NCBI GenBank assembly: GCA_041674185.1
Contig: JBAYWE010000002.1
Span: 2,233 to 66,232 of the forward strand
Origin: Minisyncoccota bacterium
Lineage (GTDB): Bacteria; Patescibacteriota; Minisyncoccia; UBA6257; JAGOQP01
Direction of reading: 5' to 3'
DNA length: 64,000 nucleotides
The notes beneath the pieces were generated by a model. It was not told the DNA's origin. It saw only the letters and a program-made list of their open reading frames with translations, and ran no database searches. Position 1 is the first letter of the stretch; each line of letters begins with the position of its first letter. Made by a program: the position numbers and the translations under genes. Shown in pieces: positions 11,766-38,804 of this stretch.

Positions 11766-11839
11766 TCGGGGATCGTCTAATGGTAGGACAGTGGCCTTTG
11801 AAGCCATTAATTGGGGTTCGAATCCCTGTCCCCGAGCCA
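11766..11839 (+). tRNA. tRNA-Gln (anticodon TTG)
   Basis: Cloverleaf by hand-folding. Acceptor TCGGGGA pairs with TCCCCGA (U1:A72 as in bacterial tRNA-Gln). Anticodon loop is CTTTGAA, T-loop is TTCGAAT, and the 3' CCA is encoded. Confidence 0.85.
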
Positions 11840-13432
11840 GCGTGAACGAATAGATACGAGAGCTTCATTCTGTTCGCAATTTATAGGCAATTTATTTGGT
11901 TCTAACCTTAGATATTCCTCTTGAAGACGAGAGTAATTTTCTCTGATTGGAAAGAACCAAGGATGTGGAACTACACTTAAGATTCCATCGCGTATTTTAA
12001 TGTCATTACCGATTGTTAAAAGAAATTCTTTCCTTGGTTCTAACCTTTTTTTATTAAAAGAATCCATCAGATTTGACATGAAAATAAATGCATTTTTTAT
12101 AGTTTCAACATCCCTTCCTCCAACCTCTGAAGTATTTTTTAGAATGTCATTTAATCGCAATATTTTGCCCTCTATTTCGTTTTTTTCTTTCAAGTAGAAG
12201 GAATCATCAATTAAGCCCCGATACCTCATACGGGTCAATTCTTCGAGTTCCTTGTGCAATTTTATTTGGGTTTCCTCTTGTGTCATTTTAATCTTTTGGG
12301 ATTTTTCAGATGACTCTTTTTCAGTGTCCCCAATTGAGTCTAAAGCCCATGCATAAAATTGTGGGATTAAATCGTATTTTTTTAGTTCACTTGATATCAT
12401 CTGAATAAGACGATCTTCTCGAATTGCTTTTCTTTGAGAACAGATAACTTTATTTGTCTTACGCGTACAATGATAATAAGTATATTCCTTGATCGTTGAG
12501 TCACTCTTTATAATTTTGCGTTTTGTTTCTGCGGTGAACAAACATCCACATTCTCCACATCGAATTATTCCGGTAAAATCGAACGAGTGTTTTTGAGGAC
12601 GAGGTTTTCCTTTTCGTCCTAAAATTATTTGTACCTGATCATATTCTTTGAGGGTAATCATTGCCTCATGATTTCCTTGATAGTGTTTTCCAAAATATTC
12701 AATGTTTCCTGTATAGAAAATGCTCGTAAAAATTTTATATATACCACTACGAGATAATTCTTTATCACCTTGACGTTTACTTTTTCTTGTTCTAAATCCC
12801 CACTCTTTATTTACTATCGTTAATATTTGGGGTGGAGTGTAACAACCAGTAAGCATCATATCCCACATTTTGCGTATGAGAGGGAAACGGATAGGATCAG
12901 TTATAATAGTTTTGTCTTCCTTATTGTTGAGATAGCCGAGAGGAGCTACATTGGGAGCCCATCCTTTTGCTAACTTACTTTCAATTCCGCGTTTTACATT
13001 TTTTCTTAATTCAATGATATATTGATTTGCCATGCCACTTTCAACATTGAATAACAACACATTATCATCCGGCAAGTATTGCCGATCAATCGTTTGAATC
13101 GATTGAAGTATACCTGTTTGCAAAAGCCAGCTTATCTTACCACTATCAATTGGATTTCTTGATAATCGATTGAGCTGCCAACTGAGAATACCACCAGCTT
13201 CACCTGCTTCTATTCTTTTAATCATCTCATCAAATATGGGACGGTTATTTGGTTTCTTTGCTGATTTTGCCTCAGAAAATATTTCAATTACATCTAGATG
13301 TAATTCCTTTGATAGTTGGGTAAGTCTACTAATTTGATCATCTATTGACTGAACCTGACGATCTTCGTTTTCGGATGACTTACGGGCATAAAGGAAATAT
13401 TTGAGGTTTTTGGATGATTGTGTAGGAAACAT
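11807..13432 (-). CDS. large serine recombinase (integrase); 3' end overlaps tRNA-Gln
   Basis: N-terminal resolvase domain (YARKSS...SIDDQ, catalytic Ser) followed by a recombinase domain and a Cys-rich zinc-ribbon region. The C-terminal codons read through the tRNA 3' end. Confidence 0.85.
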   Translation of the reverse strand: MFPTQSSKNLKYFLYARKSSENEDRQVQSIDDQISRLTQLSKELHLDVIEIFSEAKSAKKPNNRPIFDEMIKRIEAGEAGGILSWQLNRLSRNPIDSGKISWLLQTGILQSIQTIDRQYLPDDNVLLFNVESGMANQYIIELRKNVKRGIESKLAKGWAPNVAPLGYLNNKEDKTIITDPIRFPLIRKMWDMMLTGCYTPPQILTIVNKEWGFRTRKSKRQGDKELSRSGIYKIFTSIFYTGNIEYFGKHYQGNHEAMITLKEYDQVQIILGRKGKPRPQKHSFDFTGIIRCGECGCLFTAETKRKIIKSDSTIKEYTYYHCTRKTNKVICSQRKAIREDRLIQMISSELKKYDLIPQFYAWALDSIGDTEKESSEKSQKIKMTQEETQIKLHKELEELTRMRYRGLIDDSFYLKEKNEIEGKILRLNDILKNTSEVGGRDVETIKNAFIFMSNLMDSFNKKRLEPRKEFLLTIGNDIKIRDGILSVVPHPWFFPIRENYSRLQEEYLRLEPNKLPINCEQNEALVSIRSRWLGDRDSNPN

Positions 13433-13472
13433 AATACGTCTGTTTACTTGGGTACAAATAATACCGTTTAAA

Positions 13473-13673
13473 CTATCGAGTGTGCAAGTCCCCACTTTTT
13501 TCTAGGGCATCTTTGAGAGCGCGAATTTTTTCTTTCGTAATCGGCTCATAGACTAACTCTACTAAGCGAATTACTTTAGATGCTTTCTCATACGCTTCGT
13601 TTTTATCTAGCTGTATTCCAAAATGTGTAAAATATAATTCTTGGAATTTTTTTATGTGTTCATCTGATATCAT
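13473..13673 (-). CDS. small hypothetical protein upstream of integrase (possible directionality factor)
   Basis: 66-aa ORF immediately 5' of the integrase on the same strand. No recognisable motif. Confidence 0.3.
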   Translation of the reverse strand: MISDEHIKKFQELYFTHFGIQLDKNEAYEKASKVIRLVELVYEPITKEKIRALKDALEKSGDLHTR

Positions 13674-19271: not shown

Positions 19272-20519
19272 TTATTTGATTAGTAAGAATTTTTTTGTTT
19301 TGGTATAGTTATTCATTTGCAAGCTGTAAAAATAAACACCACTCGAAAGATTACTTCCATCAAATCGAACTACATACGTTCCCGGTTGTTTTATTTCATT
19401 CACGAGCACAACAACTTCGTTTCCCAATAAATCATATACACTAAGATGTACTACTTCAGTATGTGTTAGAGCGTAGGTAATATTCGTTACCGGATTAAAA
19501 GGATTAGGATAATTCTGAAACAGGTGAAACTCTGTCGGCTGAGAATATGAATCTTTGGCAACATCTGTAACGGTTTGATTTATTTTAAATACTGATCCGT
19601 TATCAACATAAAATATATCTCCGAAAGAATTCATTTGTATTTGCTTTACATACGCATGAGTGTTTACACCACTCAGTTCTCCAAGCAGATTCCATGTGGT
19701 TGTGCCATTAGTATTTTTATAAAGATAGCTTGAAGTATAATCACTTGTTTCTGCAAACAAATTTTCCTGCTGATCTTTAAAAATTTTTGTGGTAACAAAT
19801 GGAGTTTGAGTTATTGGGACAATACCTAAAGTAGTTCCATTATCCATAGTCGTTCTGATTTCGTTTGAAGTCGTAAAATAGATCAGTCCATTAGATCGTA
19901 TTGCGGTTGCATATACAGTCCCTGGTTCGCAATAACTCCATGATTCTCCGTCAGTAGATTTGTATAATCCTTGATACGTTCCAATGTAGATAGTTTTATT
20001 CGGATGGATAGCAATACCCAAACCAAGACTTTTACTAAACGAATTTTGTGAGGGAAGAGACTTCCATGTACTGCCATTATCTTTAGAAAGATAGAAGGTA
20101 TAGACACTGGAATATACCGCGTTATTATATGCAGAAATATGAAAGAGCAAATTCCCATTTGCATGTTCAAACATGCGATCAATCTCTACATCTTGAAATC
20201 CGACTAACTCCCAATTTCCTGTTTCGTTTTTACTTCGGTATAATCCATTATAAGATGCATCGACATATAGATCACCAGAATTCGTTTTATAGACCATTCC
20301 CGTTTGTTTATACGGGAAGCTCAGAGAAACCCAGGTTACGCCATTGTCAGGCGAATAATATAATCCATCACTTTCTGTCCCGACAAAAATTCTATTATCA
20401 GAAAGAATAGAAATAGTGCGGGCAGTACTAAACGGTGTCGTGATTTTTGTGCCGATTTTTTGAGACCACACAAAACTTGCAATCAATAAAAGAAAAATAA
20501 TAGTTACTGATTTTTTCAT
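19272..20519 (-). CDS. secreted BNR-repeat protein with T9SS (Por) C-terminal sorting domain
   Basis: Signal peptide; SxDxGxTW BNR repeats (SPDNGVTW, SKDNGSTW). C-terminal ~80 aa match the Por_Secre_tail consensus (YPNPFNP...VYDLLG...SGVYFY). Confidence 0.8.
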   Translation of the reverse strand: MKKSVTIIFLLLIASFVWSQKIGTKITTPFSTARTISILSDNRIFVGTESDGLYYSPDNGVTWVSLSFPYKQTGMVYKTNSGDLYVDASYNGLYRSKNETGNWELVGFQDVEIDRMFEHANGNLLFHISAYNNAVYSSVYTFYLSKDNGSTWKSLPSQNSFSKSLGLGIAIHPNKTIYIGTYQGLYKSTDGESWSYCEPGTVYATAIRSNGLIYFTTSNEIRTTMDNGTTLGIVPITQTPFVTTKIFKDQQENLFAETSDYTSSYLYKNTNGTTTWNLLGELSGVNTHAYVKQIQMNSFGDIFYVDNGSVFKINQTVTDVAKDSYSQPTEFHLFQNYPNPFNPVTNITYALTHTEVVHLSVYDLLGNEVVVLVNEIKQPGTYVVRFDGSNLSSGVYFYSLQMNNYTKTKKFLLIK

Positions 20520-25719: not shown

Positions 25720-28700
25720 ATGCAGTATGAATTGATTGAAGAATTAACAAAGCAATTTTACGAATGGGAACAACGGGGAAGAGGTTGGGATTTATGGAGC
25801 TTTCCCGTTGATCCTGAACCACCGTTTATTCCGTTCTATTATCACAGCGCAGAGAAAGTCGTGCAGATTGATGATGGACGAAAACCAACACTTCTCAGTT
25901 CATTTGCCGATACATTAAAACGTGTATTACTTCCAAGTGAATCTCAAGATGCTCATAAGAATCAAACAATTGAATATCGAAAAGAAATTTTACCACAACC
26001 ATTCACCCGCAGTGATGATATTCAGGAAATAAAAATTGTATTACCGCACGACTATAAGATGGATGCAGAATATCTTGAGCAGTGTATTCTTGGCATTACT
26101 CTTCATACATCTTTGATCAGTTTCGAAATAGTAGGATCGTATGAATCCATAACCATCCAGTTTGCTTGTTGTGCACATGACACAATACATCTTTCTCAAC
26201 AACTCAAAGCATACTTTCCTGAATACACACTCTCAGTATCTGAGAATTCATTTTATGATACATTTTTCCCAGATGAAAATGATGATGTTGCGGTAATCGA
26301 TTATGGATTGTCTGAAGAATTTATGAGACCAATTCGTGTGTATGATTCTTTTGACCCCGATCCTCTCACCGGAATAATTGGAGTATTAGATAATCTACAA
26401 GAAGGAGAAACTGCGCTCTTACAAATACTTTTTACTCCAGTAGAAGCTCCATGGTCTTCAAGTATCATGCGATCAGTTATGACCAGTTCAGGAGATTCTT
26501 TTTTTGCCGATGCCCCGGAAATGGTAAAACTTGCTCATGAAAAATGTAAGTCCCCTCTCTTTGCAGTTAACATGAGAGTATTAGGAAAAGGAATAAATCA
26601 ACATCGTTCATGGGAAATTGTTAAAGCTGTATCAAGTTGTTTGAGTTCATATACACTGCCGCAAAGCAATGAGTTAATTCCTCTCACAAATCAGGATTAT
26701 AATCCTATTGCGCACTATGAAGATGTTATCTTACGGCGAACGAGACGAAGTGGGATGATTCTCAATAGTGAAGAGTTGATATCACTCGCTCATTTTCCAT
26801 CTGCATCTATAGTTTCTAAAAAACTTCGAGGGCAAAATCAAAAAAGTATTCTCGCACCTAATACCTTAGCTGGACATGACTATATACTTGGTGAAAATAT
26901 TCATAGTGGAACGTCACATGAAGTATCACTGAGTCATGAGCAACGATTGCGACACATCCATATTATTGGAGCTACCGGCACCGGAAAATCGACTCTGTTA
27001 CGATCACTCATCACACAAGATATAGAACGTGGACTTGGCATAACGGTATTAGATCCTCATGGAGATTTAATAGAATCGATTCTTGAGCAGATACCAGAAG
27101 AGCGTTTTGAAGATGTGATTGTATTTGATCCTAGTGACGAAATGCATCCGATTGGATTTAACATTCTCGAAGCAAAAACTGAAGTTGAAAAAAATGTATT
27201 ATCATCTGATCTGGTTGAGATATTCAAAAGATTTTCTACCAGTTGGGGTGATCAAATGAGTGTGGTTTTAGGGAATGCTATTTCAGCATTTCTGGAAAAC
27301 TCACGTATTGGTTCATTGATGGATTTACGAAGATTCCTAATCGAGAAAGATTTTCGTGAGGAATTTTTGCGTGATGTTTCGGATGATCATGTCATCTACT
27401 TTTGGGAAAAAGAATATCCCCTCTTACGCGGATCGGCATTAAGCTCAATCCTCACACGACTTGATTTTTTCTTGCGCCCTAAGCTGATAAGAAATATTGT
27501 CTCTCAAACGAAAGGAATTGATCTTAAAGAAATTGTTGATCATAAAAAAATACTTTTAGTAAAACTTGCTCAAGGAATTATTGGTGATGAGAACGCCTAT
27601 CTGTTAGGATCATTGCTCGTATCAAAACTACACCAAGTCGTTATGCAACGGCAATTACAAAATAGCCATGAACGCACACCCTTTTATTTATACATAGATG
27701 AGTTTCAAAACTTTATTACGCCATCCATGAAAGCGATGTTATCCGGTGCAAGAAAATATCATATGGGACTAATCCTTGCGCATCAAGATTTACATCAGTT
27801 ATCGGAAACGGATACCGGGCTTGCTAATTCCATTATATCAAACGCAGGAACGCGCATTTGTTTTCGTGTCGGTGATTTTGATGCGCAGAAATTAGAAAGT
27901 GGATTTGCACATTTTGATTCAAACGATTTACAAAATCTGAGCATTGGTGAGGCAATCGTTCGTGTTGAGCGATCTGATTATGATTTTAATCTAAAAACAT
28001 TTTTACCAAGCTTGAAAAATACCGAAGAAGCGCACAGAACTAAGCAAGCAATCATCGATCTTTCCAGAAAAAAATATGGTGGAGTTCCTGCTGTAATTGA
28101 ACGAACAAAACAGGAACCACAAATATATTCCATACCGCAGACATCGATAAAGAAAGATGTCCCTAAAAAAGAACCTATTGAAATCCCGAAACGGAGTAAT
28201 GATACAATTCGAACTCAGAGCGAAGATCAAAAGAGCATCACCTATCATAGATATTTACAAACATTAATAAAACGATTAGCGGAACAGAGAGGATATAAAG
28301 CTGTTGTTGAAGAACAGACAATTGACAAACTTGGACGTGTTGATGTTGGACTTGAGCGAGATGATGAAAAAATCGCATGTGAAATTTCTGTAACCACAAA
28401 TGATGATCACGAGATAAAAAATATTGAAAAGTGTTTTCAATCAGGGTACCAGAAAGTATTATTCTGCTCACCAGAAAAGAAGCGTCTTGATTCAATAAGG
28501 AAATTGATAGTTGAAAAGTTAGAATCAGTATTATGTGAAAAGGTATTTTTCTTTTTGCCTGATGAATTGGTTTTGTTCTTTGAGAATGAAACTATAGGTA
28601 AGGTCAAACAGCAAAGTGAAAATATCGTGAAAGGATACAGAGTAAAGGTGGAATACAAAACTATTTCCGAAGCTCAAAAAAAAGAGAAACAGGAAGTAGT

Positions 28701-28749
28701 AAGTGGAGTTGTCGTTAATGCGCTGAGAAGATTGAAGGGAGAAAAATAA
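25720..28749 (+). CDS. large P-loop NTPase (DUF87/TraD-VirD4/HerA-like) with unknown N-terminal domain and C-terminal nuclease-like domain
   Basis: Walker A HIIGATGTGKST and a DPHGDL motif, with Walker B at LYIDEFQNF. Paralogous to the ORF at 38893-40227. The C-terminal GRVDVGLERDDEKIACEIS region is PD-(D/E)xK-like (weak). Confidence 0.6.
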   Translation: MQYELIEELTKQFYEWEQRGRGWDLWSFPVDPEPPFIPFYYHSAEKVVQIDDGRKPTLLSSFADTLKRVLLPSESQDAHKNQTIEYRKEILPQPFTRSDDIQEIKIVLPHDYKMDAEYLEQCILGITLHTSLISFEIVGSYESITIQFACCAHDTIHLSQQLKAYFPEYTLSVSENSFYDTFFPDENDDVAVIDYGLSEEFMRPIRVYDSFDPDPLTGIIGVLDNLQEGETALLQILFTPVEAPWSSSIMRSVMTSSGDSFFADAPEMVKLAHEKCKSPLFAVNMRVLGKGINQHRSWEIVKAVSSCLSSYTLPQSNELIPLTNQDYNPIAHYEDVILRRTRRSGMILNSEELISLAHFPSASIVSKKLRGQNQKSILAPNTLAGHDYILGENIHSGTSHEVSLSHEQRLRHIHIIGATGTGKSTLLRSLITQDIERGLGITVLDPHGDLIESILEQIPEERFEDVIVFDPSDEMHPIGFNILEAKTEVEKNVLSSDLVEIFKRFSTSWGDQMSVVLGNAISAFLENSRIGSLMDLRRFLIEKDFREEFLRDVSDDHVIYFWEKEYPLLRGSALSSILTRLDFFLRPKLIRNIVSQTKGIDLKEIVDHKKILLVKLAQGIIGDENAYLLGSLLVSKLHQVVMQRQLQNSHERTPFYLYIDEFQNFITPSMKAMLSGARKYHMGLILAHQDLHQLSETDTGLANSIISNAGTRICFRVGDFDAQKLESGFAHFDSNDLQNLSIGEAIVRVERSDYDFNLKTFLPSLKNTEEAHRTKQAIIDLSRKKYGGVPAVIERTKQEPQIYSIPQTSIKKDVPKKEPIEIPKRSNDTIRTQSEDQKSITYHRYLQTLIKRLAEQRGYKAVVEEQTIDKLGRVDVGLERDDEKIACEISVTTNDDHEIKNIEKCFQSGYQKVLFCSPEKKRLDSIRKLIVEKLESVLCEKVFFFLPDELVLFFENETIGKVKQQSENIVKGYRVKVEYKTISEAQKKEKQEVVSGVVVNALRRLKGEK

Positions 28750-28834
28750 AATATATTATTGTGTGGCTTTGCATCAGTAATTATGTATTTATTATAGACT
28801 AAACAATACAAAGTAATCAGGATTAATATGGTGA

Positions 28835-29407
28835 TTGAAGATGGCAAAAATTAAAAAAATAAAAAGAAATCAAATATTGATTAAGAACTATGGATTATTC
28901 TGGAAAAAAGATGATGTCTTTTGGGGAAAACAAAGAGCTACAGGTAGACTATTAGGAATACTTGCTGGAGCAAAAAGATCTGACACAGTTGATTTCAGAA
29001 ATCAGGTTGGAATTTATGTGCTCTATGCTGATTATAAGATTGTTTATATAGGTCAAGCAGGAAATGGAAATGCAAAACTTTTCGCTCGTTTAAAAAATCA
29101 TTCACGTGATGATCTTGCTGGTAGATGGAATCAATTTTCATGGTTTGGTTTAAACTGGGTTACAAAGCAGCATAAATTATCAAGTGATATAGCTCGTCTT
29201 TTCCCAAAAACGCTCTCCGTGCTCAATCATATAGAAGCAATATTAATTCATGCAAGTGAACCCCCTCTTAATCGGCAAGGGGGAAGATGGGGAAAGGAAG
29301 TTCAGAGATATCTTCAGTATAGAGATGCCGAATTACTTGGAAAATCAGAAACAGAACTGTTAAAAGAAATTCACAAGAAAATAAAAAATATTGGGACAGC
29401 ATCTTGA
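28835..29407 (+). CDS. GIY-YIG nuclease domain protein
   Basis: GIYVLYADYKIVYIGQAGN followed by R...H and N residues, a GIY-x10-YIG pattern. Its stop overlaps the next start (ATGA). Confidence 0.55.
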   Translation: MKMAKIKKIKRNQILIKNYGLFWKKDDVFWGKQRATGRLLGILAGAKRSDTVDFRNQVGIYVLYADYKIVYIGQAGNGNAKLFARLKNHSRDDLAGRWNQFSWFGLNWVTKQHKLSSDIARLFPKTLSVLNHIEAILIHASEPPLNRQGGRWGKEVQRYLQYRDAELLGKSETELLKEIHKKIKNIGTAS

Positions 29408-30330
29408 AAGAAATTATAATCGACATCGGCGACAGCACTAGAAATGAATTGAGATGGTTGGCGTTTTATCGTTCTCTAGAATCCAAATCTATCAAAAAAG
29501 GTAAGCAGGTAATTATTGATTTTGAAAACGTCACGTTTATTATACCTTTCTGTTTGCTTGGTCTGTTAGCATTTATTAAATCTACATTTGAGATCACTCA
29601 AAAAAAAGTTAAGCTAATAAATATTTCTTCAGATAAAACAATATACCAATACATGGAAAGGGTAGATTTTTTTAAGTACACAAAAAAATATTGTACCATT
29701 ATTGGTGATTATACTGATGTAAAATTGTGGGAACGAGATAATGAAGCTAAAAAGGTGCATGGAATTATTGAGGTAGAAAAAGATCCAAATAAGAGTGCTA
29801 AAAAAGTAGCACTAATCATTGATGACCTACAGAACAGATATAAACATATTCTTGATTTCTTTTCTACAAATCATAAAAACGCAAACATCTTCTTTACTAT
29901 ATTATCTGAGATTACTGCCAATATTCCCGATCATAGTAATTCAAATGGATACTTATTGATACAGAGATGGGAGAGTCAAGCTAAAGGAAAAATTTTCACT
30001 AGTCTTTCTATCATTGATACAGGTATTGGAATAAGAAGAAGTCTTCAAAAACAAATAAAGACTCGTAATAGGAAGCTTCCTAAAAATCTTGATGGTGATT
30101 CTGATTTTTTAAGATATGCTTTTAGTGAAGAAGGTACTCGAAGTGGAGCGGGACTACATAGTGTTGTCCGATCTCTTCACGAATGGAACGCAAACGATAC
30201 TGCCTTATTGGTTCTTTCTGGTAGTGGCATTATGTACAAACCCCAAGGATCTTGTGACATAACATTCATCGAAGAAGAACACTACTTTCAGGGTACCCAT
30301 GCAACAATTTGGTTTTATGGAGATATTTAA
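29404..30330 (+). CDS. STAS-like N-terminal domain fused to GHKL (histidine-kinase-like) ATPase
   Basis: N box EITANIPDH, D box IIDTGIGI and G2 box SGAGLH. The N-terminal IIDFENVTFIIPFCLL segment resembles STAS. Confidence 0.6.
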   Translation: MKEIIIDIGDSTRNELRWLAFYRSLESKSIKKGKQVIIDFENVTFIIPFCLLGLLAFIKSTFEITQKKVKLINISSDKTIYQYMERVDFFKYTKKYCTIIGDYTDVKLWERDNEAKKVHGIIEVEKDPNKSAKKVALIIDDLQNRYKHILDFFSTNHKNANIFFTILSEITANIPDHSNSNGYLLIQRWESQAKGKIFTSLSIIDTGIGIRRSLQKQIKTRNRKLPKNLDGDSDFLRYAFSEEGTRSGAGLHSVVRSLHEWNANDTALLVLSGSGIMYKPQGSCDITFIEEEHYFQGTHATIWFYGDI

Positions 30331-30371
30331 ACTTGACAATCATTTCTAGAATACCTACCTTTAAGTAGAAG

Positions 30372-30974
30372 ATGCTTAAGGGTATGTTAAAAAGACAAAA
30401 CAAAATAGAGATTTATCAGGTAGCCCAAAAAGCGGGATGGAAAACTCCAAACACTTTAATTTGGAGAGAGCCCGCACAAAAAATGAGACCTGAATTTGTA
30501 AAGCGATTATATAAAGAAAACGAGACAGTGTGCGAATTAGATTTTTCAGGAATTGAGACGGCAGATGGTTCTTTTATTGATGAGTTTCTTGTGACTGAAT
30601 TAAAAAGCATGGACGCTGGTAAGGTAAGTAAAAAAGCAATTTATCTTTCCAATCTGAATGATGTTGTTTTATACAACGTCGAATTAGTCTTTACAAAAAA
30701 GCGTCCAGCTGGAGAAAAATTTTATATGATGTTTCGTAAAGCAGATGGAACTTGGGAACTGTTTTCAGAAGGAATTGAAGCATCATTAAAAGAAACATTA
30801 GAGTATATAATGATAAAAAAAGAACTAACCTCTAACGATGTTTCTAAGAAATTTAACATCAGTGTTCCGGCTGCTTCGGTAAGATTGAAAAACTTATTTG
30901 ATATGAGAATCGTAGACAGGAAAGACGAAACAACATCGACAGGAAAGGAATTTGTGTATGAATCTCTCTTTTGA
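30372..30974 (+). CDS. STAS-like (DUF4325-type) domain fused to C-terminal winged HTH
   Basis: LDFSGIETADGSFIDEFL resembles the anti-sigma-antagonist STAS core. The C-terminal region is HTH-like. Confidence 0.5.
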   Translation: MLKGMLKRQNKIEIYQVAQKAGWKTPNTLIWREPAQKMRPEFVKRLYKENETVCELDFSGIETADGSFIDEFLVTELKSMDAGKVSKKAIYLSNLNDVVLYNVELVFTKKRPAGEKFYMMFRKADGTWELFSEGIEASLKETLEYIMIKKELTSNDVSKKFNISVPAASVRLKNLFDMRIVDRKDETTSTGKEFVYESLF

Positions 30975-31099
30975 TTTTTTTTGCCCTACTCTTAAGTATA
31001 ATTTGCTTAAGAGGTATTGGAAAATTTTTTACATAGCAGTTAAGCAAAAATAGCTTATAGGTAATTCACTTAATAATCATAAAAGAAAGGAGAAATCCG

Positions 31100-31627
31100 A
31101 TGAACGATTCAAATGAAGTAAACAAAAATCAAAATGAACAGAAAACTCATCCTGATCATTTGAAAAAAGAAATTGATGAGCTTGAACAAAAAGCTGAGAA
31201 GCTCGAAGAGGTAGCAGACCAATTTGAGAATGATGCTGAAAAACTTCATGAAGAAGCACACAAACTTGAAGAGAAGGCAGAGCAGCTTGAGAAAAAAGCA
31301 CATCAACTGGAAAAGGAAGCTGATAAACTTGAAGATAGAGCAGAAGAGCTCGAAGAAAAAGTTGAGCAGCTAGAGCATGAAGAAGAGCATAAGGAATTTA
31401 CTATTTCTGTGAATGGGAGAATGAAAACCGTTCAGGGTAAAACAATTTCGTATGATCAAATTGTTTTTCTTGCCTCTGGAAACCCAAATCCTGATCCAAA
31501 TATTATTTATACCATTAATTACAGTAAGGGTCCCAAACAAAATCCTAAGGGCTCAATGTCACAAGGCGATATTGTTAAACTAAAAGAAGGAATGATATTC
31601 AATGCTACCCCAAGTAATAAGTCTTAG
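31100..31627 (+). CDS. coiled-coil + multiubiquitin (Mub) beta-grasp domain protein
   Basis: N-terminal EKxEELE heptad-rich segment. The C-terminal ~80 aa (FTISVNGRMKTV...IVKLKEGMIFNATP) match the bacterial multiubiquitin domain pattern. Overlaps the downstream E1 gene. Confidence 0.6.
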   Translation: MNDSNEVNKNQNEQKTHPDHLKKEIDELEQKAEKLEEVADQFENDAEKLHEEAHKLEEKAEQLEKKAHQLEKEADKLEDRAEELEEKVEQLEHEEEHKEFTISVNGRMKTVQGKTISYDQIVFLASGNPNPDPNIIYTINYSKGPKQNPKGSMSQGDIVKLKEGMIFNATPSNKS

Positions 31628-32777
31628 TCCCGACCTTAAACAATTGTGGGATGAAGGTTTTGAATTAGAGGTCAAACATGGCTATCTATTAGTGCACAAT
31701 GTCCCCTATGTTACTTCCTCAAAACAAATTAAAAGTGGAACCCTCGTGTCAACACTTGATCTTGCGGGCGAAGTAACCAATAACCCTCAAACACACGTAA
31801 TCTATTTTATTGGAGAATACCCATGTCAAAAGGATGGTTCGCCCATCCTTGCGATTCAGCATCAAAACGGAGATCAGAATCTCGGGAACAAAATTGTCGT
31901 GAATTATTCGTTCTCGAATAAACCGGCGAATGGGTATCCAAACTATTATGAAAAAATAAAACGCTACTTCGAAATTATTTCGAACCACGCAAAATCACTT
32001 AATCCTGATGTTGAAGTAAAAAAATATGAGGTTCATCTTACTGAAGATGAGGAATCTGTATTTCATTACTCAGACACAAATTCGAGTAGAGCAAAGATTA
32101 ATGCGCTACAAGAAAAACTGGAATCACAAAAAATCGTTATTGTCGGTTTAGGAGGAACCGGATCGTATATTTTAGATTTGGTTGCAAAAACTCCTGTTAA
32201 AGAAATACATCTGTTTGACGGTGATGAATTTCTACAACATAATGCATTCCGTTCTCCTGGTGCACCATCACTCGAAAAACTTCGAGAGCGAAAAAAGAAA
32301 GTAGATTATTTTGCTGAGGTATACTCAAGGATGCACAAGGGAATCATTCCCCATGCAGAATTTATCAGCAGTGAAAACATCAATCAATTACTTGACAGTC
32401 ATTTTGTATTTCTTGCAATCGATGGTAGTCAGATAAAAAAGGAATTGATTGAATTTTGCATGAACAACAAAATTCCTTTTGTTGATGTGGGAATGGGTTT
32501 ACAGCTTGCAGATAATGAACTGGTAGGCATTGTGCGAGTCACCACAGGGCTACTCTCTAAAACAGATCATCTTGAAAAAAGAATTTCTTTTTCGGATGAA
32601 TCTGAAAACGCTTATGCAAGCAATATTCAAATAGCGGATTTGAATTCATTAAATGCGGCGTTGGCAGTCATCAAATGGAAAAAGATATTTTCTTACTATC
32701 AAGATTTAGGAAAGGAATGCAATAGTAACTATGCGATAAACACAGGAGAATTATTCAATGAAGACTTTGTCGTATGA
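31602..32777 (+). CDS. E2-like (UBC-fold) domain fused to E1-like ThiF/MoeB adenylyltransferase
   Basis: IVIVGLGGTGSYILD Rossmann motif of ThiF/E1. The N-terminal region has H-x9-C spacing (HVIYFIGEYPC) like UBC catalytic sites. Confidence 0.65.
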   Translation: MLPQVISLSPDLKQLWDEGFELEVKHGYLLVHNVPYVTSSKQIKSGTLVSTLDLAGEVTNNPQTHVIYFIGEYPCQKDGSPILAIQHQNGDQNLGNKIVVNYSFSNKPANGYPNYYEKIKRYFEIISNHAKSLNPDVEVKKYEVHLTEDEESVFHYSDTNSSRAKINALQEKLESQKIVIVGLGGTGSYILDLVAKTPVKEIHLFDGDEFLQHNAFRSPGAPSLEKLRERKKKVDYFAEVYSRMHKGIIPHAEFISSENINQLLDSHFVFLAIDGSQIKKELIEFCMNNKIPFVDVGMGLQLADNELVGIVRVTTGLLSKTDHLEKRISFSDESENAYASNIQIADLNSLNAALAVIKWKKIFSYYQDLGKECNSNYAINTGELFNEDFVV

Positions 32778-33120
32778 GTTTGTGGAATATATTCCAGACC
32801 AAATTGAAGAGGGTAAACTGTATGTTTCAATTCCTAATTGTGTGGCGATTCATAAATGTTGCTGTGGATGCCATACCGAAGTAGTTACTCCTCTATCCCC
32901 TGATGATTGGAGATTAATTTTTGATGGAGAATCTATTTCGTTATATCCCTCAATTGGTAATTGGCAATTTGCCTGTAAGTCCCACTACTGGATTAAGAAT
33001 AATACAGTTGAATGGGCTAAATCATGGGATGATACAATGGCTGAGAAGAATAGTAGTAAAAAATCTAATAAAAAAATGTTCTCGAAATTTTTAAAACATT
33101 TTTCTAAAAGAAAAAAATAA
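32758..33120 (+). CDS. DUF6527-like Cys/His-rich small protein
   Basis: CCCGCH...C...H cluster. This family recurs next to ThiF/multiubiquitin genes. Overlaps the E1 gene's 3' end. Confidence 0.5.
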   Translation: MKTLSYEFVEYIPDQIEEGKLYVSIPNCVAIHKCCCGCHTEVVTPLSPDDWRLIFDGESISLYPSIGNWQFACKSHYWIKNNTVEWAKSWDDTMAEKNSSKKSNKKMFSKFLKHFSKRKK

Positions 33121-33191
33121 AACAAACGTTCTTCACAATTAATTTAATTCATTTTACTAATCGGTTATACCATGATGAACAGTATAACCGA

Positions 33192-35147
33192 TTAAATATC
33201 ATCAGTTTTTGTAGAACTTGATTGTGGCTTGTTAGATAAATCACGTAGAGTCTTTCGCCAGAAAAACACTTGATCCTTCTTAACTCTTAAATACTTCGTA
33301 GAATTCTTTTCTATTCGACCCAAAGTTGATGGATCCACTCCTAATTTCAATGCCATTTCTTTCTGGCTTAAGCCACGAATCTTTCTATAAGAGATCAGTT
33401 TTTCACCCAGTGTCTTATTAGGAAAAACTTCTGGAGTATATCCTAAAAACTCTATGATTTTGGGTATGTACTTAACCGTAGGATTACTCAGATTCTTTTC
33501 CCAGTTATAGATACTGGTTTCTTCGACACCTATAATACAGGCAACATCCTTCTGAAATAGATTTTGCTCTAGTCTCCGTTTTCTTATATGTTCCCCTAAG
33601 GATTGTGGATTTTTAGGAATATTTGATGGTTTTTGAGCTGTTAGTACCAACTTGCAGATTGGCAACGCAGGTATGAAGTTGTGTTGCCTTTCTGTCATCA
33701 ATTTCTCCCCAGCGGAAGCATACTGAAGCTGTATAGAAACCTCATTTTGTCCAATATTGATTCTTTCTGTAATAGTCTCAATAATCTTACGTTTTTCATC
33801 AGAATTAAATGTTTCCCACCGATTATATAGATCCTTCGCTTCGCGAAGTATTTCATCACTAGAAAGAAACTGAATCTTGAGAAAGTCTATTTCAGCTTGT
33901 AACTCCGGAATCTGATTCTCCATTTGAGAGTACTGCTCATCAAGCGGTTTGTAGTAGGTACCAAATCCATCTTTGGGTAACTCCCCTGCCATATGGAGTT
34001 GTACCAATTTGTCCATATCAGATTTTATCTTGGATTGTTTTTTAAGCAGGGTGGAGAGTAGTTCTTCTTTCTCTCTAATAGATTGATCGGCGGTGTTGAG
34101 GTACTGCACCATCTCAGTTGGAGAAAGTAAAAAACTTTTTAGTTGTTCATGGAAAATTGATTCCAGATCAGACGTTCCAATTTTGTTATGACATTTCTGA
34201 CAAGTGTATTTGGGTGAGTTGGATGGAACATACATCTTCGTATCACATTCACAAAATACAAACCCGGTAAATAGATGGACTGCTTTTTTAGCTGGCTTAT
34301 GATTACTTTTTTGTTGCTCATCTAAAATCGCGTTGCATTGATTCCATATATCCTCAGAAACGATTGGTTCTATTTCTATAAATACCCAATCTGAGGGGGG
34401 CTTTAATTCCCATTTTTTATTTTCTCCTAAGCTCTTGGTATAGTTTGCACGCCTTACTCCTTTTGCACTTGGGTCTTGCAGTAAACGAGTTACGGTCGTA
34501 TCACTGAACTTAGAACCATTGCGTGTTCGATACCCTGATTCATTCAGAATACGGGCAACAGTTTTTTTACGTTGATGTTCAATGAATAATTCATAGAGCA
34601 GTTTTCTGATCGGAGCTTCTTTAAGATCGGGAATTAATTTTTTATCAAGCCACTGATATCCAAAGGGTGCTTGGCCTCCTAACGGCTTTCCCATTTTTGC
34701 TCGAACTGGAACTGATGCAGCAACTCGTTCAGCAATTTCTTCCCGTTCCCACTGAGCCATCGCCGCAATCATCGTATAAAATAATCTTCCCGCCGGAGTT
34801 GAGGTATCAATCGATTCTTGTAGAGAAATAAGATCGGCATTGTACTTTCTAAATATCTCTGCAAATTCTAAAAGTTCTTTTGTGTTTCTTGCTAAGCGAG
34901 CAAGTTTAGAAAATATAATTCCTGTAATTTTTCCTGACTTGATATCTGAAAGCATCCGTTGGGTTTCGGGATGTTCCATGACTGACTTACCACTAACGGC
35001 TTCAAGCTTATATACTTCTTTTATATCCCACTCTTTTGATTCTGCATAATAACGAGCGCGTCTCTCATGGTGTTCGGGGCTTTCTCCTTTAACCTGATCT
35101 TCAGTTGAAACACGAATCCAAATACCTATTGATTTATTTTCACCCAT
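33192..35147 (-). CDS. large serine recombinase with C-terminal tandem XRE-type HTH domains
   Basis: N-terminal IGIWIRVSTEDQ resolvase catalytic domain, then recombinase/zinc-ribbon domains. The C-terminal ~130 aa carry two XRE HTHs (LGEHIRKRRLEQNLFQKDVA and LGEKLISYRKIRGLSQKEMA). Confidence 0.85.
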   Translation of the reverse strand: MGENKSIGIWIRVSTEDQVKGESPEHHERRARYYAESKEWDIKEVYKLEAVSGKSVMEHPETQRMLSDIKSGKITGIIFSKLARLARNTKELLEFAEIFRKYNADLISLQESIDTSTPAGRLFYTMIAAMAQWEREEIAERVAASVPVRAKMGKPLGGQAPFGYQWLDKKLIPDLKEAPIRKLLYELFIEHQRKKTVARILNESGYRTRNGSKFSDTTVTRLLQDPSAKGVRRANYTKSLGENKKWELKPPSDWVFIEIEPIVSEDIWNQCNAILDEQQKSNHKPAKKAVHLFTGFVFCECDTKMYVPSNSPKYTCQKCHNKIGTSDLESIFHEQLKSFLLSPTEMVQYLNTADQSIREKEELLSTLLKKQSKIKSDMDKLVQLHMAGELPKDGFGTYYKPLDEQYSQMENQIPELQAEIDFLKIQFLSSDEILREAKDLYNRWETFNSDEKRKIIETITERINIGQNEVSIQLQYASAGEKLMTERQHNFIPALPICKLVLTAQKPSNIPKNPQSLGEHIRKRRLEQNLFQKDVACIIGVEETSIYNWEKNLSNPTVKYIPKIIEFLGYTPEVFPNKTLGEKLISYRKIRGLSQKEMALKLGVDPSTLGRIEKNSTKYLRVKKDQVFFWRKTLRDLSNKPQSSSTKTDDI

Positions 35148-35552: not shown

Positions 35553-36605
35553 TTATTTGTCTAAGTCAGCAAAAACGTGTGAATATTTTTCCCAGATGTT
35601 TCTACTAATATGCCATGCATGTGCATGCTTTGCATATCCATACCATGAAGCACGTGATGTTTGTATTTTCTGAGCAGTAATTTTTTTCTTTAGTAGTTGT
35701 ATTACATATTTCTTAATACGCCGTTTGCATCGTTTGATCGTCGAGGTGCGTAATCGGATATAATGAGGAAAGAGTATATATCCCAAAAAGGGAACACCCG
35801 TCGTGATAGGTGATATAAATACTTTATGGGGATGTATCGTTAAAAGTAAGCGTTCTGTTAAAAATGTCTGCATGGCATCGCGTATATCATGTAATCTTTG
35901 TTTGTCCTCAGAGCAAATTACAATATCATCCATATAGCGGATATAGTACCGACAATACAATCGTTCTTTCGCATAGTGATCAAGTTCATTGAGGTAGATA
36001 TTAGCAAATAATTGACTGGTCAGATTGCCAATAGGTATACCCTTTTTTCTTCCCCCTTTGTTTGAATCATAACTACTATCAATAATGAGTCTCAGAAGAT
36101 TGCGTATATCCACATCATCAATTACGCGAATTAACAGTGCATATAAAATTTCATGATCAATACTTTGAAAATATTTAGAAATATCTAGTTTAAGAAAATA
36201 CGCCCTGCGCGTATATCCATGACTCACCCCATACATAAATTTTTTCAATCGTCGAATAGCACGGTGTGTTCCTTTTTGTTTTCTACACACATACGAATCA
36301 TAAATGAATCGCTTTTCAAAGAGAGGTTCAATATGTGCACACACCACATGATGCACAATACGATCACTAAAGGGAGCGGCACGAATTAATCGTTTCTTAG
36401 AATCACACACGATAAATTCTCGATACGTGCCGTGATAATATGTTTTGGTAGAAAGCGCATGTAATAAGTATCCCAAATTATATTCAAGACATTGTTCAAA
36501 TCTCACTACACAGCGTTTCTGTCGTCGCAATTTTCGCGCACGACAATACGCATAATAGAGTTCAGAAAAGGAACAAAGCGATTGATACATATCATAGATA
36601 TCCAC
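35553..36605 (-). CDS. diversity-generating retroelement reverse transcriptase
   Basis: RT motifs include YMDD (RYMDDIVI). The DGR-specific IGxxxSQ signature (IPIGNLTSQLFANIYL) replaces the group II intron QGxxSP. The 350-aa size is typical of DGR RTs. Confidence 0.9.
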   Translation of the reverse strand: MDIYDMYQSLCSFSELYYAYCRARKLRRQKRCVVRFEQCLEYNLGYLLHALSTKTYYHGTYREFIVCDSKKRLIRAAPFSDRIVHHVVCAHIEPLFEKRFIYDSYVCRKQKGTHRAIRRLKKFMYGVSHGYTRRAYFLKLDISKYFQSIDHEILYALLIRVIDDVDIRNLLRLIIDSSYDSNKGGRKKGIPIGNLTSQLFANIYLNELDHYAKERLYCRYYIRYMDDIVICSEDKQRLHDIRDAMQTFLTERLLLTIHPHKVFISPITTGVPFLGYILFPHYIRLRTSTIKRCKRRIKKYVIQLLKKKITAQKIQTSRASWYGYAKHAHAWHISRNIWEKYSHVFADLDK

Positions 36606-36775
36606 GGGCGCATGGCTTTCCTCGTACAGAGAATTCTATACGAGGAAATCTTATAGCAAACATGTTGCGATAAGTATATGCGCATATATTCCCTTGCGGG
36701 ACAGAACAAAGCCAGTAGTCATCATGACACAGTTGTATATTCCGTAGAATATATATTCGGGCCACTTATAAAAAT

Positions 36776-36900
36776 AATGATGTATACCGAGCGCACCGGA
36801 ATCCAATGTTGTTGTTCGTATTGCCTGGGGTATTGTTCAGATTGAGTGTCTCTACACCAGCGTTCGTGTCATTGTTCCAATTCCCACCACGAAGGAAGCC
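36776..36900 (-). repeat. DGR template repeat (TR)
   Basis: 125-bp near-copy of 37381-37505. About 22 of the mismatches fall where TR has A on the coding (minus) strand, i.e. T on the plus strand. Confidence 0.9.
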
Positions 36901-36973
36901 CGCCTTCATTCCGGTTTTAAATGCGGCATTATCCTGCTTCTGATAATAGATAATTCATACGATCAGAAGCATA

Positions 36974-37309
36974 TTATAAAAATCGTTTGGTAAGTCCTTG
37001 CCAGATACGTCCAAGTTCATTTAGTTTTTCCGCACTTACACCATACTGTCGTATAGAAATAAAACGTAAATCTTTTGCGAGGCGCATATATAATTGCAAC
37101 GTATCAAAATGTAAGCTGATAGATGCGATGCATTCTTTTTTTGTTTTTGATATTTGAAATCGCATCATGGTTTGTAATAACGCGAGGCATTCCGATTCAA
37201 TATGTTGTCCTAATACAAATCGCTGGTTTTTAGGAAACTTGCCGACGAGCGGAAATACCCACACAAAGTATGCATACGCTTTTTGAAACAACAATAAATC
37301 TTCAATCAT
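36974..37309 (-). CDS. avd: DGR accessory variability determinant (Avd, four-helix-bundle protein)
   Basis: 111 aa. FQKAYAYFVWVFPLVGKFPKNQRFVLGQ resembles Avd / 23S-IVS four-helix-bundle proteins. Lies between the target gene and the TR. Confidence 0.8.
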   Translation of the reverse strand: MIEDLLLFQKAYAYFVWVFPLVGKFPKNQRFVLGQHIESECLALLQTMMRFQISKTKKECIASISLHFDTLQLYMRLAKDLRFISIRQYGVSAEKLNELGRIWQGLTKRFL

Positions 37310-37380
37310 ATGATGATCGTAAAAAATGCGGGGATAGATTTTTAGATAGCTAGATTGCTACGGTTCATTTCGCTATGCGA

Positions 37381-37505
37381 AATGATGACTACCGAGCGCA
37401 CCGGAACCCAACGGCGTTGCCCGTACTGCCAGGGGCACCGTACAGAAGGAGTGTCTCTACACCAGCGTGCGTGCCATCGCCCCAACCCCCACCACGAAGG
37501 AAGCC
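37381..37505 (-). repeat. DGR variable repeat (VR) at 3' end of target gene
   Basis: Matches TR except at TR-adenine positions. Encodes the C-terminal ...VYGFLRGGGWGDGTHAGVETLLLYGAPGSTGNAVGFRCAR segment. Confidence 0.9.
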
Positions 37506-38804
37506 GTACACAGTGGCATTGCTTGATCCATCAGAATAGATACGACCGATTCCTTGAGTAGCACTCCATGCGCTATTATAGGGACCAGCAGTTTGTTGAG
37601 TCATAGTTCCCCATGTGGTAATAGCAGTAAATTCTCTCCAGTTAAAACCAGGAGTGGAACCCGTAGGTTGATTCGTTCCTGTAATAGTGTCATTCGTCCA
37701 CTCCCACACATTTCCTGCTATGTCCCATAACACACTGCCATTAGAAAGCGTGTGAGTGCGGAGATGGGTGAAATCGGTATAACCGGTGCCGTATTGAGAA
37801 GAACCATCCTGAGCAGCAGATGAGTTTGAGTTGCCTCTTCCTAGGTAATTGGTACCCACAACTCCGCCATACCAGTTGATGGGTTGTTGTTGTATGTTCC
37901 AAGCGATAGTTTGCCATTCTGCATTGGTAATGAGATGTGCGCCAATAGATGCGCAATATGTTGCGGCTGTAGTTTGAGAAATGTTTGCAATCGGATAGCC
38001 AGCAGACGTAGAGGCAGGGGTAAGCGGAGAAACACAGGGAGTCGTATTATTTGCGTAGGTGTTATATCCCGTGTTGGGTGTAGTTAGAGGCGTATTACCA
38101 GAAACACACTTGGCTTCGTATTGCATGACATAGAAATCTGAGGTACCAAAGGTTGTATTACCAGGAACTTTAGCCCAACCAGAGGGAAAGACACCTTGTG
38201 CTAACGTAAGATCAGTACCAGCTTCAAAGGCAGTAGCACTAGTACCTCCATCCGCTTGTGCTCTCGGTATGTATTTAACTGATTCTGCAACAGCAGTTAC
38301 TTCATAGGTTTGAGCTGAGGGATTGGGAACATACGTATAATATAATCCCGTGGATGAGGAGTTGGTCGGATCAATAGGAAGTTTGGAAAGATTTTGAATT
38401 CCCGAAGCAGTGAAGTCTATGGGAATCCACCCAGTCCCATTGGTGAGAGTGGATGATGCAGTAGGAACACATTTATATCCATATCCCGAAGGGAGTGCGG
38501 GAAGTCCCCAACTTGCACAGGTAGCAGAGGTATCAGGCAATGAAACATACACCGTTGAAGCAGTACCTAAAGAAACCTGAGGATTTTGGGTGAGTAATAA
38601 CTGTATAGTTTTATGCATAGATGCCACATCGGTCATACGAGTAGAATCTCTTCCTTGTCTGAGAAGTTCGGTAGGATTGAGAACAATGACTACTGCGGCA
38701 GTTAAAATAGCTAAGATACCAATGACGATAAGAAGCTCAATAAGTGTAAATGCTTTCTTCAAAGGAGAAGGCTTAAAACAAAAGCCGGTGCGTTTAGTAT
38801 TCAT
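37389..38804 (-). CDS. DGR target protein: type IV pilin-like N-terminus + C-type lectin/FGE-like C-terminal domain bearing VR
   Basis: N-terminal KAFTLIELLIVIGILAILTA is a prepilin-type methylation motif. C-terminal GNVWEWT...GFRCAR is CLec/FGE-like. Confidence 0.85.
   Translation of the reverse strand: MNTKRTGFCFKPSPLKKAFTLIELLIVIGILAILTAAVVIVLNPTELLRQGRDSTRMTDVASMHKTIQLLLTQNPQVSLGTASTVYVSLPDTSATCASWGLPALPSGYGYKCVPTASSTLTNGTGWIPIDFTASGIQNLSKLPIDPTNSSSTGLYYTYVPNPSAQTYEVTAVAESVKYIPRAQADGGTSATAFEAGTDLTLAQGVFPSGWAKVPGNTTFGTSDFYVMQYEAKCVSGNTPLTTPNTGYNTYANNTTPCVSPLTPASTSAGYPIANISQTTAATYCASIGAHLITNAEWQTIAWNIQQQPINWYGGVVGTNYLGRGNSNSSAAQDGSSQYGTGYTDFTHLRTHTLSNGSVLWDIAGNVWEWTNDTITGTNQPTGSTPGFNWREFTAITTWGTMTQQTAGPYNSAWSATQGIGRIYSDGSSNATVYGFLRGGGWGDGTHAGVETLLLYGAPGSTGNAVGFRCAR

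Follow-up and report, generated by a model that had tools for sequence, protein, structure and literature searches.

Two kinds of bacterial gene set are the closest described relatives of the locus reported here. The first is the regulator pair capK and capS (capKS). CapS is a dimeric repressor, and CapK, once activated by single-stranded DNA (ssDNA), phosphorylates a serine of CapS within its STAS domain; the dimer dissociates, and capS and the downstream operon are de-repressed (Chambers et al., EMBO J 2026, PMC13373217; preprint published February 2026, bioRxiv 10.64898/2026.02.02.703251). All 443 published capK genes are followed by capS. The next operon is Bub in 231 cases, a cyclic oligonucleotide-based antiphage signalling system (CBASS) in 75, MBL in seven, and Bil in five, and 88 are downstream of restriction-modification (R-M) genes (PMC13373217). 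The pair also precedes systems that do not involve a ubiquitin-like protein (Ubl), namely Thoeris IV, CarolAnn, and yegP (PMC13373217). The second is the Type II Bub operon, which encodes the Ubl BubA, the E2-E1 fusion BubBD, and the serine protease BubE (Ye et al., bioRxiv 10.1101/2024.11.21.623953). Both gene sets were found side by side in a 64,000-nucleotide stretch of a Minisyncoccota bacterium (contig JBAYWE010000002.1, positions 2,233 to 66,232), referred to here as the window.

The region of interest contains six genes and is unremarkable in base composition. Genes 1 and 2 overlap by 4 nucleotides, genes 4 and 5 by 26, and genes 5 and 6 by 20, and the spacer between genes 2 and 3 is 41 nucleotides long. 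The sole large gap is the 125 bp between genes 3 and 4 (30975–31099). Genes 2 to 6 very probably form one transcription-linked unit, consisting of a CapK/CapS regulator and the Type II Bub operon that it regulates. This reading joins the two halves as regulator plus operon because of their conserved linkage, the operators, and the behavior of the five genes as a block. An initial annotation, made from the window alone, had proposed either a single multi-component system or two stacked defense cassettes. Coordinates of all features are collected in Table 1.

Linkage, operators, and block exchange

In every locus of the subfamily that extends past capK, the next gene is capS. What follows the pair differs between loci (Table 1), as does the sequence upstream, where type I R-M genes, helicases, or an ATPase are found. 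The order of genes 2 to 6 recurs in several independent contigs, so the arrangement is not due to chance. A pair with a variable downstream operon raised the suspicion of a regulatory cassette, and the palindromes described below were taken as confirmation. The published Bub dataset already lists Type II (6E.2) operons from Bacteroidetes and the candidate phyla radiation (CPR). Two extra adjacent gene identifiers in some of its rows, which were seen without the column header, we read as the regulator pair.

A palindrome of approximately 30 bp, TACCnTTAAG-N9-CTTAAnGGTA (TTAA-N11-TTAA), is present in two copies per lineage in nine lineages. The core of site A, TTAAG-N9-CTTAA, is exact at 30361–30379, and the site lies 11 nucleotides before the capS ATG in seven of the nine lineages. 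Site B is an exact palindrome at 30992–31010. It is preceded by an invariant T8G tract and begins 18 nucleotides after the capS stop codon in eight of the nine lineages, whichever operon comes next. The degenerate site C is located 30 bp beyond site B. The exact core occurs twice in the window, against an expectation of 0.22, and the two copies bracket capS.

CapS has been shown to bind TTAA palindromes at two places, the capK-capS junction and the DNA downstream of capS, by chromatin immunoprecipitation sequencing (ChIP-seq), fluorescence polarization, and electrophoretic mobility shift assay (PMC13373217). Site A is the counterpart of the published CapS ChIP-seq peak 1, in the intergenic DNA between capK and capS, and site B is the counterpart of peak 2, the “wide palindrome” (PMC13373217). 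By this correspondence, sites A and B are predicted CapS operators, and the site B region is probably the promoter/operator of the Bub operon.

The palindromes could instead act as RNA hairpins, in translational control of capS or in attenuation before bubA. In that case a 10-bp stem at site A would hide the start codon of capS, and a single operon of these genes would mean that both sites are transcribed. The arms, however, are conserved in sequence (TTAAG and CTTAA) and do not covary, and uncompensated mismatches are present at flanking arm positions in several lineages. The stem is not followed by a run of T, the terminator scan called no terminator there, and the palindromes have no match in Rfam. 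Experiments have also shown CapS bound to TTAA palindromes at both of these positions (PMC13373217). RNA hairpins are thus a very improbable explanation, and the sites are treated below as DNA operators.

The closest relative of the window locus is L001/L013, from a Bacteroidetes metagenome-assembled genome, in which CapK is 83% identical to that of the window. The five genes from capK to bubE behave as one exchangeable block between the two. The edges of the block are 27 nucleotides before capK and 1 nucleotide past the bubE stop codon. The adjoining upstream ATPase region is only 68% identical between the two loci, against 91.7% within the block. The L001 locus carries insertions after bubE, namely a type II R-M system and a DDE transposase.

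For L004, L006, and L015, homology at the nucleotide level stops at 31009–31024, about the 3’ end of site B. Farther on, it starts again within the Bub genes, or is absent where Bil replaces Bub. With homology ending near site B, the downstream operon seems to change at roughly the operator position. This suggests that the operator/promoter could be the place where the immune operons that follow capS are exchanged for one another.

The same evidence bears on whether the two halves are unrelated defense cassettes (nuclease/kinase/STAS and Bub) that are merely stacked. The pair occurs without Bub in L008, L009, and L015, a 125-bp gap separates the halves, and defense genes generally cluster, all of which would fit such stacking. 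Where Bub is missing, however, Bil or CBASS takes its exact place, starting from the conserved operator, and the operator 3’ of capS is kept whatever operon comes next. The five genes travel as one block of 92% identity, PADLOC has no model for a system of capK and capS only, and control of the downstream operon by CapKS has been demonstrated experimentally for homologues (PMC13373217). Stacking without a functional connection is therefore considered extremely unlikely.

The initial annotation had suggested a co-occurrence check, and had held that its single-system reading would fail if the two halves never occurred together elsewhere or if a promoter/terminator pair separated them. The capKS pair and Bub occur together in at least five further lineages, in line with the published count of Bub-linked pairs (PMC13373217). 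As for the gap, it carries the conserved CapS operator and, by homology, the operon promoter. The operator/promoter is itself the functional link, so a promoter in the gap was mis-specified as a sign of separation. Of the two possibilities offered, the single system holds for the kinase/STAS and Ubl-E1 genes, which belong together; gene 1, the putative nuclease, is outside the unit.

Genes 2 to 6 and the regulatory model

Gene 2 is assigned as CapK, a STAS-GHKL serine kinase identified through the published system (PMC13373217), with predicted kinase activity. A STAS-like domain that cannot be phosphorylated comes first, and the GHKL ATP-binding domain after it keeps its N, G1, and G2 boxes intact (N box, E169/N173/H177; G1 box, D205xGxG209; G2 box, G248-A-G-L251). 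In an alignment of 40 diverse homologues, N173, D205xGxG209, and G250 are invariant, and E169, H177, and L251 are nearly so; the latter three are invariant in the close subfamily of eight sequences. The AlphaFold2 (AF2) model has a predicted local distance difference test (pLDDT) score of 91.2 and a predicted template modeling (pTM) score of 0.91, and its GHKL fold matches CheA P4, GyrB, and WalK. Profile alignment with hhalign against CapK-type proteins of annotated capKS loci gave probabilities of 91–96%.

Close homologues of the CapK/CapS pair are rare, with 9–10 clusters among 5.8 billion proteins. Scans based on the capK alignment returned one genome locus, three metagenome loci, and no viral loci, in a pattern-based search that reaches close relatives only. 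A tblastn search of CapK against plasmids gave no match, and the same search with CapS gave usable matches. CapK also matches PHROG family phrog_3364 (function unknown, E 2e-19), so phage genomes, too, carry kinases like CapK. At E<=1e-3 the broader STAS-GHKL family numbers 451 cluster representatives. Its members are frequent in Nitrospirota and Thermodesulfobacteriota, where they occur in non-defense contexts. Distant homologues of 23–28% identity are in housekeeping contexts; they show a broad fold family and are uninformative on linkage to defense.

Gene 3 is assigned by sequence as CapS, a predicted STAS transcriptional repressor with a winged helix-turn-helix (wHTH) and a predicted phospho-acceptor at Ser67. 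A family profile of ten homologues matches the V. cholerae CapS crystal structures 9Z72/9Z73 (E 7e-14) and E. roggenkampii CapS 9Z71 (E 7.5e-8; residues 51–193, which include the wHTH and part of the STAS domain). The Pfam matches, to a DUF4325 STAS-like domain and to HTH_5/MarR_2 (ArsR/MarR-type wHTH), are weak and all below cut-offs. The motif DFSGIETADG-S67-F resembles the SpoIIAA phosphorylation site. In an alignment with CapS from Vibrio gigantis, Cytobacillus, and other distant sources, S67 is the only invariant STAS residue, and it aligns with Ser58 of Vibrio CapS (TDA-S-F). The conserved phospho-acceptor is S54 in E. roggenkampii and S58 in V. cholerae (PMC13373217). A STAS-only CapS query against the PDB, aimed at the S58A position in 9Z72, returned nothing relevant.

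The capS gene of L006 (L006 8978–9662) was called as 172 amino acids. Its missing C-terminal residues (…TTGKEFVYEAFF) can be read in another frame of the DNA annotated as intergenic, and this is either a frameshifted gene or an assembly error.

The first half of the locus was at one point considered as a possibly new system, as PADLOC reported nothing for genes 2 and 6 and a marginal, likely spurious, match for gene 3. This was dropped when the CapK/CapS literature was found.

Genes 4 to 6 (31100–33120) are identified from their sequences as a Type II Bub operon (formerly 6E.2/DUF6527). BubA is made up of a charged coiled coil and a single beta-grasp domain (Pfam Multi_ubiq PF14452, E 3.7e-16, residues 100–171). 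It matches PDB 9cd2, the crystallized BubA (multi-ubiquitin protein) of E. coli ZDHYS365 (E 2.3e-13), and aligns with it to the last residue (...NKS against ...DKS). A BubA with a coiled coil and one beta-grasp belongs to a rare, already catalogued class, CC-Ubl1 (PMC11601603).

BubBD matches DUF6791 (E 2.6e-58) and ThiF (E 1.1e-17) in Pfam, and NCBIfam NF004805 over its cut-off (E 2.7e-172). Across five divergent BubBD proteins, F104-S105-x-K107-P108, R217, and Y338 are invariant. S105 and K107 are in the E2-like domain, R217 is in the adenylation site, and Y338 is in the crossover loop; S105, R217, and Y338 correspond to E. coli S106, R219, and Y342, with numbering one to four residues apart. 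The five aligned proteins also share an invariant Cys75 (31824–31826), part of a GE(Y/H)PC motif in the E2-like domain. Bub E2 domains have been described as being without a catalytic cysteine.

BubE matches DUF6527 (PF20137, E 1.6e-24) and has a basic/hydrophobic C-terminal tail. C34, C36, C38, and C73 (a C4 zinc site) and S65 and H76 (a candidate dyad) are invariant. The spacing of the four cysteines and H76 equals that of C57, C59, C61, C99, and H102 in the Citrobacter protein, and the serine candidate S65 is one residue off the spacing of Citrobacter S92. The domain search found no JAB/JAMM peptidase in any of the six proteins, which sets Type II apart from Type I.

By homology, the locus would work as follows. 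A CapS dimer (STAS-wHTH) would bind site A, site B, and, more weakly, site C, and would thereby repress capS and bubA-bubBD-bubE. DNA damage or phage infection would yield ssDNA and activate the GHKL kinase CapK. CapK would phosphorylate Ser67 of CapS, the dimer would fall apart, and the Bub operon would be transcribed. BubBD would adenylate the C-terminus of BubA, BubA would pass through oxyester intermediates at E1-Tyr338 and E2-Ser105 and then onto targets, and BubE (Ser-His protease, C4 zinc site) would remove the BubA conjugates. The initial annotation had considered a phospho-switch that might control Ubl conjugation or be controlled by it; in the published system the link is transcriptional, with CapS repressing the operon and CapK inactivating CapS (PMC13373217).

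A post-translational link would have CapK phosphorylate a Bub protein, or CapS or CapK serve as substrates of BubA conjugation. The capKS pair does prefer Ubl systems, which are Bub, Bil, and E2-containing CBASS in the loci compared here and Bub, Bil, MBL, and CBASS in the published counts given above (PMC13373217), and the targets of Bub are not established in the literature. Against such a link, capKS also precedes the non-Ubl systems Thoeris IV, CarolAnn, and yegP, and regulation was intact in a reporter assay in which the immune operon was replaced by GFP (PMC13373217). No data suggest cross-talk between the two sets of proteins. Little credence is given to a protein-level link, and transcriptional control by CapS is preferred.

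Several observations weigh against the assignment of genes 2 to 6 as a regulated CapKS-Bub unit. The mechanism at the window locus would be transferred by homology to the E. roggenkampii and V. cholerae proteins. CapK has no N-terminal helix-turn-helix (HTH): the AF2 model begins at the first STAS strand, Vibrio gigantis CapK carries approximately 54 extra N-terminal residues in the alignment, and the stop-to-stop open reading frame (ORF) of capK has room for only 27 more codons. A CapK with the HTH deleted was fully functional in the published reporter assay (PMC13373217), so the loss of the HTH lowers strict architectural membership, not the functional assignment. Published CapK contacts ssDNA through W68, K237, and K239, and the catalytic asparagine is N218 in E. 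roggenkampii (PMC13373217). At 20% identity, counterparts of the three ssDNA contacts cannot be assigned in the window CapK. All subfamily members have W18, more distant ones have Phe at this position, and an identity of about 20% places it unreliably against HTH-containing CapK. The AF2 model of CapS, built from a ten-sequence alignment, is poor for the STAS domain, with an overall pLDDT of 48 and confidence only in the wHTH. Site A is wide, as opposed to the narrow site published for the capK-capS junction. A scan with a sigma-70-type consensus, which is probably not that of the host, found no promoter on the + strand in the 125-bp gap. In the literature, protection by Bub operons has not been demonstrated against any phage.

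Table 1. Positions of the features described (window coordinates unless another locus is given) and gene content after the capK-capS pair
Feature	Position	Strand	Description
Gene 1	28835-29407	+	190 aa; GIY-YIG-like; borderline Pfam GIY_YIG_2
Gene 2, capK	29404-30330	+	308 aa; weak DUF4325/STAS and HATPase_c
Gene 3, capS	30372-30974	+	200 aa; weak DUF4325 and wHTH
Gene 4, bubA	31100-31627	+	175 aa; coiled coil and Multi_ubiq
Gene 5, bubBD	31602-32777	+	391 aa; DUF6791 and ThiF
Gene 6, bubE	32758-33120	+	120 aa; DUF6527
Exchangeable block	29377-33121	+	capK leader to bubE stop; 91.7% nucleotide identity to L001/L013 over 3.7 kb (blastn)
Site A, predicted CapS operator	30356-30384	.	TACCtTTAAG-N9-CTTAAgGGTA; overlaps capS ribosome-binding site and start codon
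T8G tract and site B, predicted CapS operator	30975-31016	.	CTACtCTTAAG-N9-CTTAAGaGGTA
Site C, third degenerate CapS-type site	31040-31058	.	TTAAG-N9-CTTAT; only in window and L001-type loci
After pair, window			Type II Bub
After pair, L001/L013 (Bacteroidetes metagenome-assembled genome, JAJYXU010000117)			Type II Bub
After pair, L004			Type II Bub
After pair, L006			Type II Bub
After pair, L014			Type II Bub (bubA; contig ends)
After pair, L021 (Cytobacillus plasmid)			Type II Bub
After pair, L015 (272-kb Trout Bog contig)	region L015 10001-14443		Full BilABCD; begins right after conserved operator
After pair, L008	region L008 8001-12544		NucC / CD-NTase / E2 CBASS; begins right after conserved operator
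After pair, L009			HNH gene
Retroelement reverse transcriptase	35553-36605	minus
Retroelement template repeat	36776-36900
Retroelement accessory ORF	36974-37309	minus	111 aa; four-helix-bundle-like
Retroelement variable repeat	37381-37505		C-terminus of 471-aa protein

Gene 1 and the mobile-element surroundings

Gene 1 matches Pfam GIY_YIG_2 at E 9.7e-5 and 22.8 bits, against a cut-off of 22.4, over 37 residues, and a GIY...YIG motif is visible in the translation. PHROG and NCBIfam gave no match to gene 1, and a GIY-YIG search of viral contigs returned nothing. L001/L013 lacks the gene and has 48 bp in place of 623 bp, and every other capKS locus compared lacks it as well. Homologues are present on Ralstonia megaplasmids (52% identity) and Solidesulfovibrio pDMC2, with no capKS or Bub nearby. 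The last 10 or so codons of gene 1 run into the conserved capK leader. Because it is outside the block, is missing from all other capKS loci, and has homologues elsewhere without capKS or Bub, gene 1 is a variable neighbor and not a component of the capKS-Bub unit.

Genes 1 to 3 were also compared with a toxin-antitoxin set like VapKSC, in which the GIY-YIG protein would be a toxin held by the STAS protein and freed when the kinase is activated. The window CapK lacks an HTH, as VapK does, and the 4-nucleotide overlap of gene 1 with capK makes co-translation possible. An HNH nuclease follows capS in L009, and a TIR protein precedes capK in L015. The absence of gene 1 from the relative with an 83%-identical CapK and from all other loci argues against this arrangement, as do its stand-alone homologues and the block boundary at 29377, which leaves gene 1 out. 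In addition, where VapS has a short C-terminal tail, the STAS partner carries a full wHTH, and it comes with operator sites. A toxin-antitoxin role for these genes is hardly credible, and the placement of capK and capS with the Bub operon is retained.

The ATPase gene next to gene 1 (1009 amino acids, 25720–28749) is TrwB/VirD4-like. The gene is approximately 67–68% identical among three related elements (window 25720–29407, L001 4895–8000, and L015 6457–9920), and the ATPase, which is VirD4/HerA-like, matches Pfam DUF8128/TrwB_AAD_bind, PADLOC mad8, and phrog_5156. The slot between the ATPase and capK is empty in L001, holds the GIY-YIG gene in the window, and holds a TIR protein gene in L015. 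It is conceivable, though improbable, that the ATPase and the slot gene form an uncharacterized front-line DNA-targeting system that yields the ssDNA triggering the HTH-less CapK. If true, this would be a two-layer circuit like the R-M / capKS / CBASS sandwiches with a new first layer.

Downstream, the six genes are followed by a large serine recombinase (651 amino acids, 33192–35147, minus strand) with two C-terminal HTH_3 domains. A 247-bp piece for its C-terminal part (33437–33683) is 87% identical to L001 16260–16506, a stretch that leads from intergenic DNA into the beginning of a ComM-like Mg-chelatase gene. Both the recombinase and the ATPase match phage protein families. The surroundings are rich in mobile-element genes, with a second serine recombinase, methyltransferases, a second TrwB-like ATPase, and a diversity-generating retroelement.

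The description of six co-directional, dense ORFs with one gap of about 125 bp in the initial annotation agrees exactly with the ORF coordinates, and the domain search finds the ATPase and recombinase that it had named as boundaries. Its inclusion of the nuclease in the system is contradicted by the position of gene 1 outside the block and its absence from the closest relative and every other capKS locus. Carriage of the locus as cargo of a mobile element is plausible given the mobile-gene-rich surroundings. At its 3’ end, the second large serine recombinase gene (11807–13495, minus strand) is overlapped by the tRNA-Gln at 11766–11839, and this place is a candidate for the point of integration and for the left end of a mobile element.

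The retroelement is complete and is directly downstream (35553–38804, minus strand). Its 471-amino-acid target protein combines an FGE-sulfatase/C-type-lectin fold with an N-methylation motif of the pilin type. Mismatches between the template and variable repeats are at template adenines in 22 of 23 cases. Proteins with a type IX secretion system C-terminal sorting domain (Por_Secre_tail) were noted at 19272–20519 and 37389–38804; taken by itself, this domain would point to a host from Bacteroidota, in keeping with the Bacteroidetes label of L013.

Comparison with known systems

The window locus adds a metagenomic example to a pairing published in 2024–2026. It gives independent support in three respects: CapS operators are kept at fixed positions across divergent lineages, the immune operon after capS appears to change at about the operator, and the five genes move as one block. 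The locus is useful for annotation, as PADLOC lacks models for capK, capS, and bubE and the Pfam matches of capK and capS are weak. It also helps in the choice of variants for study, with an HTH-less CapK and wide/wide operators.

Compared with the published CapK+CapS system (PMC13373217), the window has the same STAS-GHKL kinase directly followed by a STAS-wHTH protein with an invariant phospho-acceptor serine. TTAA palindromes are likewise present where capK meets capS and shortly downstream of capS. The window pair precedes Bub; in relatives, the pair precedes Bil or CBASS and is also found downstream of type I R-M genes. The differences are the missing N-terminal HTH (CapK of 308 against approximately 360 amino acids), the extra degenerate third site, and an identity to the characterized CapK and CapS proteins of only about 20–30%. 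Both window operators are wide (N11), in contrast to a narrow capK-capS site, TTAAaTTAA (N1), and a wide downstream site (N10) in the published system (PMC13373217). Upstream, the window has a VirD4/HerA-like ATPase and a GIY-YIG-like gene in place of an R-M system.

The Bub operon of the window shares with the Type II Bub of Ye et al. the order BubA, BubBD, BubE, the lack of a JAB peptidase, and a plausible location in a mobile element. Also shared are the E2 serine and lysine, the adenylation arginine, and the crossover-loop tyrosine of BubBD, and the C4 site, Ser/His pair, and hydrophobic/basic tail of BubE. It differs from the E. coli model in its BubA, which has the rare coiled coil with one beta-grasp and not the three beta-grasps of Ubl3.

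VapKSC (PMC13373217) resembles the window in having an HTH-less STAS-GHKL kinase beside a STAS-domain substrate. The window STAS protein differs in its full wHTH and operators, and no PIN domain, as in a VapC toxin, was found in the six genes or in the immediately flanking genes scanned. SpoIIAB-SpoIIAA and RsbW-RsbV similarly have a GHKL serine kinase acting on a conserved serine at the start of a STAS helix. In the window, by contrast, there is no sigma factor, the STAS protein is itself the predicted DNA-binding repressor, and the kinase has its own non-phosphorylatable STAS domain. CapW/BrxR and CapH+CapP are also DNA-damage-responsive regulators beside Bub, CBASS, and other immune operons, but the proteins and mechanisms are unrelated (a WYL ssDNA sensor and a repressor-cleaving protease, respectively). 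The window locus is a further example of the already described regulator/operon pairing, and its differences are variations within this known kind.

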